From Chrysomallon squamiferum (taxonomy: Eukaryota; Animalia; Mollusca), in contig CM022665.1 in NCBI GenBank assembly GCA_012295275.1, positions 49,104,001-49,168,000 on the forward strand: a stretch of DNA of 64,000 nt, written 5' to 3'. Position 1 is the first letter of the stretch. The number at the start of each line of letters is the position of its first letter. The notes below the pieces were generated by a model. That model saw nothing but the letters and a program-made list of their open reading frames with translations. It did not search any database and was not told where the DNA came from. Positions 33,201 through 59,537 of the stretch are shown here, piece by piece. The position numbers and the translations under genes were made by a program.

Positions 33201-33758
33201 GTAATTATAAATCCGCTTAGTTTATTAAGTTAGTGGAGGGGTGGAATGAAGACAGAAAGAAGGAAGAAAAGGAGAGAGAGAAAAGAATCAGAACAAAGAA
33301 AAAGAAGGGAAAAGAAAAACAAAAACAGAAATAAAAGTTACTGCCACAGACAGCAATATTTCAAGAGGGGAGGGCGAGGGAGGCTGCTATCCCTAGAACT
33401 GACGAAATCCCGAGCCTTAACCGCCCAAACACCACTGACAAAACGTCCACATACCTAGTGTCCATTTTGTCGGCTGCCAAAGTTTTACAGAGGTCGATGT
33501 CTACCTTGCAGCTTTACGAATAAATTGTCTGTTAAAACTATCTCTAATTTCAACATCAGAACTTCTAGTGTTAGTAGCTCAAGATCAAATCCTCGAAAGT
33601 CTTTATACAGTAAATATTACTTTATTTCTTGAGGTTAACAATCAACATAGAATCAGTTTCTGTAGAAATTTAACACGTTCCAGTGTTGTATTAATTATTA
33701 TACTAAAATTAGATTTTATTTAAATTTACAGTTAAAGTACATAACAGAGTCACAAACA

Positions 33759-36700
33759 ATGAAGGAATACAGAAACCTGAATCTATTTATAGAACAGTCA
33801 GGTAAGTAATACGGACTTTATTACGTTAGTTTTACGATTGATAACATAACAGTTTTATTTTACCTCTGGGATTATCTCTGTCTGGAAATAACACATAAAG
33901 ATGTTAAAAAATATTAATTTGTGCGTCGTTTTTTCGCAAACACAAAATCTCTTTTCAAGATTCACCAGATAAATCACGAATATAATTGATCCATTTAAAT
34001 AAAATGAGTGAAAACTGCATTCCATATTTCTAATGTGAAATCATAACAATGTGCGGAATCATACTCCACACACGTTAATTCTAAAATGTTTATTTTAATT
34101 TCATATTTCTCAAATTACAGTCCCAAGTGACAACGAAGTCGATATGACAGAGAGGAGCATTCAGTCATCAGGTAATTTTACACCATGGAAAACGTAACTA
34201 ATAAATTGCTTCTCACAAAATCAATCTGTTTATTTTAAATTTTTCTCGGTTTCGTAAACCAGTATATATATACATAAATATTTAACAATACCTGTGAAAC
34301 AAAGAAATAATTGCCTACTTAAACGGACTGTGCATCCAATAAATTAGAATTGGAATAAAATATTGATAACTCGTAATTTCAGTACCTCACATGATCCAGC
34401 AATGATTTTTACGTGACTCACATCTTTCAATAAAGATACGAACATCAACATCTATAATGTAATTCAGTTAATAGAATGTTTGTGTCATTTCAAATTATTT
34501 TAATTAAGACAAAGTATCTCCTTCACTTCCTTGTTTCAAAAGGTATCACAAACGTTAACCTTGCAATTTAATTAACATCCTGATTTCGTTTTCAAATAGT
34601 TTGTATGTCTGTGACTTTGAGCATTTTTCTAATTTAAATGACTGCTATATGAATTATATTCTTATAATCGTAAGCTCATATTAATTTTACAACTTTTATT
34701 TTGCGTTACCACTTCTTTTCTTCTGAAATTACAATTCTAGCCTATGAACTAACGGAAATTCTGCCACAGAAAATTTGTTTCCGATTAAATACAGTTGAAC
34801 CATCCTATTACTTGATATGTACAATTTAAGAAAAAAAAAAAAAAATAGCGTTAACAAAGTTTATAAATTTCAGGATTTTTGAAAGATAATGAAAGAACAC
34901 ACAATATATTAATAAATATATATAATGTTACATGGTTAAACCTTGTTAGTTTAGTTTGAAACTCTAAATAACAAGTAAATCTGGTTTTATTAAAAAGTAA
35001 TTTGCATATTCACTCTTCGAAATGATGTCTGACTTAAAAGGATTTGTAACTATTTAACTGTTTTGAAATCATTTTATTTATTTACTTAATTATTTATTCA
35101 TTTATTTATTTATTTATTTATTTGTCACTTTTATTATTATTATTGAACGGACCTTGTGTCGCACCATTTGATATATCTGTAAACTCTGTTTCTGAAAAAG
35201 TTATCTGCAGACACGGAGAAGCGCCTTTAGTATTTTGTATCCTAGGTGAAACACGCACATATCTAACGAAAACGTTCAATTTCCTACTTAGAAGTCGTCT
35301 GTGGATGCTTAGAACAATTCATTCTTACAACTCGAAATCTCAATTCTGGACTGACGCAACAATTCATGAATATACTTGATCCATTTAAATAAAATGAGTG
35401 AAAATTTCATCGAATTTTTCTAATATGAAATCATAACAGTGCGGCGACCTTAGTGGTGTACTTAGTGAAATAAGAACCACAGAACTTGCATCTGGAGGTA
35501 TATTCTAGGTTTATTCTATTACATTTTATTTATTTATTTATTTATCACTTTTATTATTATTATTATTGAAAGGACCCGTATATCACACCATTTGATAAAT
35601 CTGTAAACTGTTTCTCACAAAGTTATTTGCAGACACGAAAAAACGCTATTTGTATTTTGCATCGTAAGTGAAACATATTTGAATGTAAAATCAAAACAGT
35701 GTGACGAGTCACACTTCACAGATGTTAATTTTAAAATGTTTATTTTAATTTCATATTTCTCAAATTACAGAGCCAATTGATAAGCAGGTGGAAATCATAG
35801 AGGAGGACATTTATCTATCAGGTATTTTTACACCTTCTTAAACGTAACTGATAAAGGGATTGTCATAAAATTAATCGTTTTTTACTTTATTTTAGATTCA
35901 TAAGAAAAGAGTACGTATGTATATATATATATTTGACAGTACATGTGAAAGAAAGAAACAATTGCCTAGCTATACGGTCTATACATCAAATAATTGAGCA
36001 TGGTAATAAAATATTGATATCTCGTAATTTCAGTAGCTTACAGGACCCTGCCCTGATATTTACGTGACTCATACCTTTGAATAAAGATACGAACATCAAC
36101 ATCTATAATGTATTTCAGTTAGTAGAATGTTTGTGTCATTTCAAATTATTTCAAGTCATACAAAATGTCTCCTTGATTTCCTTCTTTCAAAATTTATCAC
36201 AAAAGTTATCCTTGTAATTTCATTAACATCCTCATTTCGTTTTCAAATAGTTTGTATGTCTGTGACTTTGTGCATTTTTCTAATCTAAATGACTGCTATA
36301 TGAATTATATTCTTATAATCGTAAGCTCATATTAATTTTACAACTTTTATTTTGTGTTACCACTTCTTTTCTTCTGAAATTACAATTCTAGCATAGTAAC
36401 TAACGGAAATTCTGCCATAGAAAATTTGTTTCCGATTAAATACAGTCGAACCATCCTATTACTTGATATGTACAATTTAAAAAAAAAAAAAAAAAAATAG
36501 CGTTAACAAAGTTTATAAATTTCAGGATTTTTGAAAGATAATGAAAGAACACACAATATATTAATAAATATATATAATGTTACATGGTTAAACCTTGTTA
36601 GTTTAGTTTGAAACTCTAAATAACAAGTAAATCTCGTTTTATTAAAAAGTAATTTGCATATTCACTCTTCGAAATGATGTCTGACTTAAAAGGATTTGTA

Positions 36701-57499: not shown

Positions 57500-59537
57500 A
57501 CACAGTTGAGAAGAGACGAGACAGAACAGTTGAGAAGAGATGAGACAGAACAGTTGAGAAGTGATGAAACAGAACAGTTGAGAAGTGACGAGAGAGAACA
57601 GTTGAGAAGTGATGAGACAGAACAGTTGAGAAGTGAGAAGAGAGAACAGTTGAGAACTGAGAAGAGAGAACAGTTGAGAAGTGATGAGACAGAACAGTTG
57701 AGAAGTGACGAGAGAGAACAGTTGAGAACTGAGAAGAGAGAACAGTTGAGAACTGAAGAGAGAGAACAGTTGAGAACTGAAGAGAGAGAACAGTTGAGAA
57801 CTGAAGAGAGAGAACAGTTAAGAACTGAAGAGAGAGAACAGTTGAGAAGTGAAGAGAGAACAATTGAGAACTGAAGAGAGAACAGTTGAGAAGTGAAGAG
57901 AGAGAACAGTTGAGAAGTGAAGAGAGAACAATTCAGAACTAAAGAGAGAACATTTGAGAAGTGAAGAGAGAGAACAGTTGAGAAGTGAAGAGAGAACAGT
58001 TGAGAAGTGAAGAGAGAGAACAGTTGAGAAGTGAAGAGAGAACAATTGAGAACTGAGAAGAGAGAGAACAGTTGAGAACTGAGAAGAGACAGAACAGTTG
58101 AGAACTGAGAAGAGAGAGAACAGTTGAGAACTGAAGAGTGAACAGTTGAGAAGTGAAGAGAGGGAACAGTTGAGAAGTGAAGAGAGAGAACAGTTGAGAA
58201 GTGAAGAGAGAACAGTTGAGAAGTGAAGAGAGAACAGTTGAGAAGTGAAGAGAGAGAACAGTTGAGAAGTGAAGAGAGAACAGTTGAGAAATGAAGAGAG
58301 AGAACAGTTGAGAAGTGAAGAGAGAACAGTTGAAAAGTGAAGAGAGAGAACAGTTGAGAAGTGAAGATAGAACAGTTGAGAAGTGAAGAGAGAACAGTTG
58401 AGAAGTGAAGAGAGAGAACAGTTGAGAAGTGAAGAGAGAACAGTTGAGAAGTGAAGAGAGAGAACAGTTGAGAAGTGAAGAGAGAACAGTTGAAAAGTGA
58501 AGAGAGAAAGTTGAGAAGTGAAGAGAGAGAACAGTTGAGAAGTGAAGAGAGAGAACAGTTGAGAAGTGAAGAGAGAACAGTTGAGAAGTGAAGAGAGAAC
58601 AGTTGAGAAGTGAAGAGAGAGAACAGTTGAGAAGTGAAGAGAGAATAGTTGAGAAATGAAGAGAGAGAACAGTTGAGAAGTGAAGAGAGAACAGTTGAGA
58701 AGTGAAGAGAGAGAACAGTTGAGAAGTGAAGAGAGAACAGTTGAGAAGTGAAGAGAGAGAACAGTTGAGAAGTGAAGAGAGAACAGTTGAGAAGTGAAGA
58801 AAGAGAACAGTTGAGAAGTGAAGAGAGAACAGTTGAGAAGTGAAGAGAGAAAACAGTTGAGAAGTGAAGAGAGAATAGTTGAGAAGTGAAGAGAGAACAG
58901 TTGAGAAGTGAAGAGAGAGAACAGTTGAGAAGTGAAGAGAGAACAGTTGAGAAGTGAAGAGAGAACAGTTGAGAACTGAAGAGTGAACAGTTGAGAACTG
59001 AGAAGAGAGAGAACAGTTGAGAAGTGAAGAGAGAGAACAGTTGAGAAGTGATGAGAGAACAGTTGAGAAGTGAAGAGAGAACAGTTGAGAAGTGAAGAGA
59101 GAGAACAGTTGAGAAGTGAAGAGAGAACAGTTGAGAAGTGAAGAGAGAGAACAGTTGAGAAGTGAAGAGAGAACAGTTGAGAAGTGAAGAGACAACAGTG
59201 GAGAACTGAAGAGAGAATAGTTGAGAACTGAGAAGAGAGAGAACAGTTGAGAACTGAGAAGAGAACAGTTGAGAACTGAGAAGAGAGAGAACAGTTGAGA
59301 AGTGAAGAGATGGAACAGTTGAGAAGTGAAGAGAGAGAACAGTTGAGAAGTGAAGAGAGAACAGTTGAGAAGTGAAGAGAGAACAGTTGAGAAGTGAAGA
59401 TACAGAACAGTTGAGAAGTGAAGAGAGAGAATAGTTTAGAAGTGACGAGACAGAACAGTTGAGAACTGAAGACAGAACATTTGAGAAGAGATGAGTCAGA
59501 ACAGTTGAGAAACAATGAGTCAGAACAGTTGAGAAAC
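57500..59537. repeat. Purine-rich 22/24-bp minisatellite, ~2 kb (GAACAGTTGAGAAGTGAAGAGA(GA))n
   Basis: A directly visible array of roughly 85-90 units with mixed 22- and 24-bp monomers; the units are more degenerate at both ends. Confidence 0.97.

Follow-up and report, generated by a model that had tools for sequence, protein, structure and literature searches.

Introduction

Diversifying selection on arrays of repeat exons usually marks an arms race in recognition, and to our knowledge the arrays of this type described so far use known domains (LRR, TPR, Ig or lectin). In Dscam1, which encodes an Ig-domain receptor, a docking site is complementary to selector sequences and one exon is taken per transcript. 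Schistosome micro-exon genes (MEGs) are described as combining short symmetric exons, signal peptides, exon skipping and a high ratio of nonsynonymous to synonymous divergence (dN/dS; PMC8293314, PMC10526429), and one product, MEG-8.2, lyses cells (PMC12998952). Oyster bindin carries one to five F-lectin domain repeats and its alternative splicing has been demonstrated (PMC5712786). It is expressed in the sperm acrosome. [quoted passage not shown] Its long exons appear from their sequences to be under diversifying selection, with a signal of recombination, and our preferred reading, to which we give a probability of roughly 55%, is that the gene would encode a recognition-type helical repeat protein diversified mainly in DNA, most live modules forming one chain.

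Like the ROCO-LRR and NB-ARC-TPR arrays of Ectocarpus (PMC3341825), the snail array has one repeat per symmetric exon, dead exons among live ones, shuffling, and diversifying selection on the repeats. Unlike them, its module is neither LRR nor TPR, its host is an animal, inverted exon copies are not seen, and no Roc-COR or NB-ARC domain is in view, although a distal domain is possible past the missing 3′ end. With schistosome MEGs (PMC8293314, PMC10526429, PMC12998952) it shares many small symmetric exons of at most 81 nt, long introns, high dN/dS and a lack of homologues, and its product, too, is possibly secreted and helical; however, its exons are homologous tandem copies of 42–81 nt, whereas those of MEGs are mostly unique and 15 nt long, the predicted model has 466–535 amino acids (aa) against at most 189 in MEGs, and it belongs to a snail. 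A molluscan parallel, with tandem repeats, positive selection and recombination, is Pacific oyster bindin (PMC5712786), but the array module holds no lectin domain, judging by Pfam and by its helical model. Arthropod Dscam1 clusters resemble the array in their tandem homologous cassette exons of divergent sequence and differ in that no docking/selector pairing, no Ig domains (Pfam matches to 0 of 14 modules) and no constant flanking exons were found here. The array probably works like the Ectocarpus arrays, and perhaps like a MEG, as a member of neither family; the module matches in protein searches include nothing homologous to a MEG family, and the neighbouring genes are gastropod, whereas MEGs are not known outside schistosomes.

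What we report is a previously unrecognised repeat module, without a detected relative, in a known type of gene architecture. We found no description of an array of this kind in a gastropod, in literature from which most subscription papers lay outside coverage; the available part of the scaly-foot snail genome paper (PMC7142155) treats novel genes and a DMBT1 tandem and contains nothing resembling the array.

Exon cassettes within the tandem repeat

When all copies of the acceptor flank in 33000–58000 were collected and the cassettes translated, 19 intact cag-exon-gta cassettes were recovered at 34121–56462. Five are short (51, 51, 42, 51 and 42 nt) and 14 are long (five of 78 nt and nine of 81 nt); all are multiples of three, symmetric in phase 1-1 and open in the phase-1 frame alone. 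Joined to the ATG at 33759, they yield 466 aa with zero stops. A sequence-only reading of the same DNA had listed these cassettes with their lengths and phase and had arrived at about 466 aa with every exon included, and both statements hold. Introns measure 319–1652 nt. The exons and dead copies are as follows.

33732–33801, + strand: 70-nt exon with ATG 33759, exit phase 1 and a donor perfectly matching U1
34121–34171, 35771–35821, 37164–37205, 38720–38770 and 40117–40158, + strand: five short symmetric exons, with a dead long copy after each
41594, 42631, 44288, 45319, 46190, 46729 and 47695 (starts, within 41594–56462), + strand: live long exons, fourteen in all with the next line
48729, 49726, 51325, 52886, 54003, 54649 and 56382 (starts, within 41594–56462), + strand: the remaining live long exons
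34735, 36386, 37772, 39335 and 40727, + strand: dead long copies with both splice sites lost and a 1-nt deletion, and with stops in three
52080, + strand: dead copy, donor deleted
55745, + strand: dead copy, internal deletion
57419, + strand: dead copy, acceptor CAC, exon cut by a satellite
43180–43880, + strand: insert of about 700 bp, copied along with its unit to 50218–50917 (99%)

Each live long exon encodes one module of 26–27 aa, and there is one such exon to a unit of roughly 1 kb. A second type of cassette is represented by the short exons, which have only about 50 nt of acceptor flank in common with the long ones and comprise only three distinct sequences (35771 equals 38720, and 37164 equals 40117). 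A live cassette had been credited to every repeat unit, which fails at 8 of the 22 long-exon positions. The term micro-exon also fits poorly, as 42–81 nt exceeds the 36-nt limit usual for it: exons of at most 36 nt hold 1.4% of the coding nucleotides, and exons within the wider published limit of 81 nt hold 94% (PMC8293314, PMC10526429). Duplications are nested, and duplicated blocks within the array are 85–99% identical; 35140–38097 recurs as 38089–41064 (97%, the 68 substitutions being grouped towards the ends) and 41341–44652 as 48475–51699 (85%).

Three properties distinguish these cassettes from junk. The difference between 78 and 81 nt is exactly one codon, as had been noticed before, and this single codon gap is the sole indel pattern across the 14 long exons; comparably sized flanks show 8 and 11 gap patterns, of varying length. 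At each of two rates, 600 neutral simulations were run and 0 left all 14 long exons stop-free, the mutation rates being taken from the flanks with faster mutation of G and C built in. Donors match U1 at seven or more of nine positions in 18 of the 19 exons, compared with 44 of 1778 GT sites in 26000–57500. The earlier suggestion of a protein-coding array inside an apparent junk repeat is thereby strengthened, and we regard it as likely. Words sampled from 41500–51450 occur in four sequencing runs at 0.21 (X1, RNA), 0.28 (X2), 0.00 (X3) and 0.01 (X4); exon-internal words make up only 5% of this interval, so that X1 must contain intron sequence, and the run figures are no evidence of expression, splicing or allelic variation.

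Selection on the long exons

Pooled over the 14 long exons (NG86), the proportion of nonsynonymous differences (pN) is 0.33 and that of synonymous differences (pS) 0.125, a ratio of 2.63 with a codon-bootstrap range of 1.5–5.5 and 0 of 300 replicates at or below 1; dN/dS here compares repeats within one gene, not species. None of 50 overlapping intron windows used as a control reaches this value (mean 1.00, standard deviation 0.23, maximum 1.47), and the remaining five reading frames of the long exons give ratios of 0.59–1.46. A codon model rejects omega = 1 in all four runs (two trees by two frequency models), with twice the log-likelihood difference at 17–25, a maximum-likelihood omega of 3.6 and a profile peak at 3–5. 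Neutral simulation calibrated on the introns places pS and pN both at about 0.21, and 0 of 600 replicates get to a pN of 0.33 or to the observed ratio. In the three closest pairs of long exons pS is 0, with pN of 0.08, 0.02 and 0.15. Divergence is higher in the exon than in its flank in five of eight pair tests, all three short-exon pairs among them; in the one short-exon pair tested, pN (0.35) is close to pS (0.36).

A PHI-like test points to recombination (p = 0.017), and by eye the long exons resemble mosaics of one another. Diversifying selection together with recombination and exon death is the strongest feature of the array, and it is absent from the sequence-only reading's account.

The encoded module

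Structure prediction of a single module, a step that the sequence-only reading had proposed, gives a single helix: AlphaFold2, run on the 14-row alignment, places it at residues 6–30 of 31 (mean predicted local distance difference test score, pLDDT, 81.5; predicted template-modelling score, pTM, 0.39). That reading had envisaged amphipathic helical modules. The helical part stands in prediction, while amphipathicity is modest, 3 of the 14 modules being more amphipathic than their shuffles at p < 0.05. Variability along the module is periodic at 100 degrees in six of six tests (p 0.003–0.05), and the variable stripe is centred about 100–120 degrees away from the hydrophobic side. Net charge runs from −2 to +4. 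The sequon N-x-T is present in 9 of 14 modules, with T24 in 14 of 14 and N22 in 9 of 14.

The 14 long exons had been held to encode a divergent module without recognised domain, and this was borne out, with Pfam matching 0 of 7 queries and 0 of 14 modules. The suggested profile search left the module without a convincing relative: a profile of the 14 exons, compared with 1.84 billion representative proteins, returned a single match at E 6.6e-4, the profile having only 26 positions and therefore low power. We rejected this match as a homologue of the module, since it falls in a low-complexity repeat of a protein read as SRCR-like. The module occurred in none of 7993 proteins scored in an indexed search of longer proteins, and a sequence search of the PDB gave only chance matches to HIV gp120 (domain E 0.4). 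ESM Atlas held no usable match for the module or for the candidate first exon described below, JGI metagenomes held 0 matches to the exon-end pattern, and an Rfam search gave 0 matches. Six peptide motifs were not found in the four text supplements available for a scaly-foot snail proteomics paper (PMC11871041). Separately, an LRR reading of the junction motif was discarded, as the hydrophobic spacing misfits by eye against the LRR consensus and Pfam reports no match.

Ends of the array gene

Upstream of the array, 27800–33220 on the + strand is a partly duplicated block of small cassettes (23, 56 and 19 nt), with a possible 30-nt cassette at 32918 that has a weak donor.

27649–27749, + strand: candidate first coding exon (33 codons, 101 nt) with a hydrophobic core, a possible signal peptide or anchor; uncertain
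27839–27861, + strand: 23-nt cassette copy A, phase 2 to 1 if coding
29895–29917, 32551–32573 and 30115 (donor lost), + strand: further 23-nt cassettes
28601–28656, + strand: 56-nt cassette copy A with a weak acceptor, then a 19-nt cassette at 28732–28750
33038–33093, + strand: 56-nt cassette copy C, phase 1 to 0, with an in-frame ATG inside
33170–33188, + strand: 19-nt cassette copy C, with an internal donor that gives 12 nt; it renders the 5′ frame ambiguous

Among 22 ATG-to-AG/GT candidates in 25700–57500, exon 27649–27749 has the top 13-residue hydropathy (1.97) and is the only one with a phase-2 end, and several exon chains carry its frame open into the array. The extended coding model has 23 exons and 535 aa. 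Three of four chains through the 56-nt copy C are open into the array; the fourth, in which the 19-nt cassette is spliced to the 70-nt exon, is closed. Because exon choice leaves much freedom, an open 5′ chain is weak evidence. The asymmetric 5′ copies, if coding, would need to be used one at a time, and the upstream cassettes and the ATG exon could instead be exons of the 5′ untranslated region. We put the odds that the array protein is secreted at about even. The ATG exon does exit in phase 1, as had been proposed, but its standing as the start of the array does not follow: exon 33732–33801 is open from its first base, so a coding exon may precede it. Use of a second AG, at 33747, would turn it into a symmetric 54-nt form.

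Within the 700-bp insert of the array, 27 nt (43677–43703 and 50715–50741) are 89% identical to 27662–27688 in the candidate first exon; by sequence, that exon may derive from a mobile element. Also in this region, a GC-richer stretch at 31900–32120 (+) ends in CAG/GTAACG and is a possible alternative first exon, and exons of a hydrophobic membrane protein at 25169–25620 (−) face the array gene's candidate start in head-to-head orientation.

Downstream, the array gives way to a satellite and to units encoding parts of BIR domains.

57500–59535, no strand: 22/24-bp satellite of about 2 kb, truncating both the last unit of the array and the first of the BIR units
59534–64000, + strand: tandem 1.58-kb units of three IAP exons encoding BIR halves, 98–99% identical

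In the last array unit the exon with the CAC acceptor is interrupted by the satellite at 57490. Truncated structures on both flanks point to a rearrangement or a misjoin at the satellite. If the last donor is read through, a short tail and a stop follow, with AATAAA downstream. The satellite is AG-rich and begins with 124 open codons that encode charged 8-residue repeats. Beyond it lie at least three copies of the IAP block, in which a BIR second half comes first, then a 45-nt exon and last a BIR first half. The three-exon block is in phase 1-1 and would yield a poly-BIR protein; its BIR exon is 69–71% identical to Gigantopelta aegis IAPs, and tandem expansion with domain shuffling has been described in mollusc IAPs (PMC7831173). 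The BIR units could be recently amplified or an assembly effect, and they are probably a gene separate from the array.

Mechanism and rival explanations

We propose that the gene grew by tandem duplication of one exon-plus-intron unit, and that unequal crossing-over and short gene-conversion tracts would add, kill and remix exons, diversity thus arising for the most part in DNA, among copies and probably also among alleles. Most live exons would be spliced into a chain of predicted helices, one from each exon; on every helix L1, T2, L16 and T24 would make up the conserved face, and positions 3, 6, 7, 10, 14, 21 and 25 the variable stripe, our proposed contact surface. Such a chain would bind a changing partner, for example a microbe, parasite or gamete surface. 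Symmetry would keep the reading frame when exons die or are skipped, and some skipped isoforms are expected, though not as the main device. The locus would then be a concrete candidate for recognition diversification in a mollusc without adaptive immunity, based on a module without detected relative in DNA that repeat masking would hide from annotation, and it suggests scanning masked tandem repeats for an exon-frame excess of pN/pS.

Several observations temper this proposal. Part of the high ratio comes from a low pS (0.125 against 0.215 expected), and the excess over intron neutrality is about 1.6-fold; it is significant at sites with a G/C consensus (p = 0.0004) and not at those with an A/T consensus (p = 0.10), and with a neutral rate 1.7-fold faster, 28% of simulations reach the observed pN. 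Recombination can inflate a tree-based omega. The variable stripe is weaker at 102.9 degrees (p < 0.05 in two of six tests), the mean hydrophobic period of the module is not significant (p 0.07–0.19), and a 31-residue helix model is silent on how modules pack. No 3′ end or stop exon of the array gene was found in the window, and the gene may be truncated. The binding role is inferred from the pattern of selection alone, and the gene itself is predicted from DNA sequence.

The main rival to diversification in DNA is skipping in the manner of a MEG, in which a secreted protein would be assembled from symmetric exons skipped in many combinations, giving each animal a repertoire. All 19 exons are in phase 1-1 and at most 81 nt, such exons supplying nearly all of the extended coding model, the candidate signal exon 27649–27749 joins in frame, and 9 of 14 modules carry N-x-T. 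However, frame symmetry, which the sequence-only reading took as a sign of combinatorial or mutually exclusive splicing, does not discriminate: a duplicated exon-plus-intron unit persists only if symmetric, so that tandem duplication forces symmetry even where nothing is skipped, and symmetry is no evidence of alternative splicing. The splice sites of the array are ordinary GT-AG sites, near-uniform and fairly strong, the sequon may be incidental given the invariant T24 and the variable N22, and splicing the 70-nt exon onto the 19-nt cassette breaks the 5′ chain. A high dN/dS is among the traits of MEGs (PMC8293314), and oyster bindin unites selection, recombination and repeat skipping (PMC5712786), while the homologous 42–81-nt repeat exons depart from the mostly 15-nt exons of MEGs (PMC10526429). 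On balance we consider skipping an unlikely, though serious, alternative. Its fuller form, an independently evolved generator of this type in a chemosymbiotic vent snail, with choice among 5′ cassettes and free skipping of 19 selected exons, is slightly more doubtful still; if true, each animal would hold a repertoire of secreted helical proteins of a new family that screens symbionts or pathogens, on top of exon shuffling in DNA. Mutually exclusive splicing as in Dscam1, with each transcript taking a single long exon, would agree with tandem homologous cassettes, conserved introns and three live 23-nt 5′ cassettes that cannot be joined in frame to each other. It is nevertheless very improbable: no sequence complementary to many units occurs in 27600–57500, in a comparison that may overlook short or G-U-rich pairings, only 2 of 14 exons are surrounded by an exact 11-nt inverted match, flank duplex energies are mostly near those of shuffled sequence, the introns are long, and no constant downstream exon is in view.

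The truncated 3′ side allows two further explanations. A once-active, selected gene may have lost its 3′ end lately to a rearrangement marked by the satellite and now be silent or degraded, as the defective last unit, the terminal exon not found and three dead copies among the last seven long positions would suggest; against this, 14 exons are intact, very recent duplicates among them differ nonsynonymously only, the junction may be an assembly join, and the read-through tail with its stop and AATAAA offers an ending, so that we hold it to be improbable. Alternatively, the array might splice over the satellite into the BIR exons, producing a cytosolic chimeric protein in which variable helices are joined to tandem BIR domains: a splice from 56462 to 59718 would link exon 56382 with the first BIR exon in phase 1, the frame being open for 347 aa, and the upstream half of the first BIR is not present in the window. 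This we find hard to credit, as a phase match has a one-in-three chance, the joined product would open with half a BIR, a signal peptide would be at odds with it, and the module is in 0 of 10 IAPs returned, two from G. aegis included. That the whole is a non-coding tandem repeat carrying splice-like motifs by chance agrees with the failure to turn up a homologue, but has a negligible probability beside the codon-only indels, the frame-specific pN excess, the strong donors and the stop-free frames beyond neutral simulation.

Neighbouring genes

A single-exon kelch open reading frame at 10118–11689 (+) shares 68% identity with a protein of Gigantopelta aegis and 50% with one of Haliotis. Together with the BIR exon, this match points to a likely peltospirid-like vent snail near G. 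aegis as the source of the DNA. The kelch frame is intronless and sits between minus-strand genes, and besides invertebrate kelch proteins its relatives include many, about 30% identical, from bacteria or unnamed metagenomic sources. Minus-strand exons in 3000–8400, 14538–16918 and 20263–24240 belong to a FYVE-domain gene, a TRMT61A/GCD14 tRNA methyltransferase and an LRR gene, and minisatellites of 76, 60 and 48 bp lie at 5918–6450, 12211–12511 and 24680–24876.

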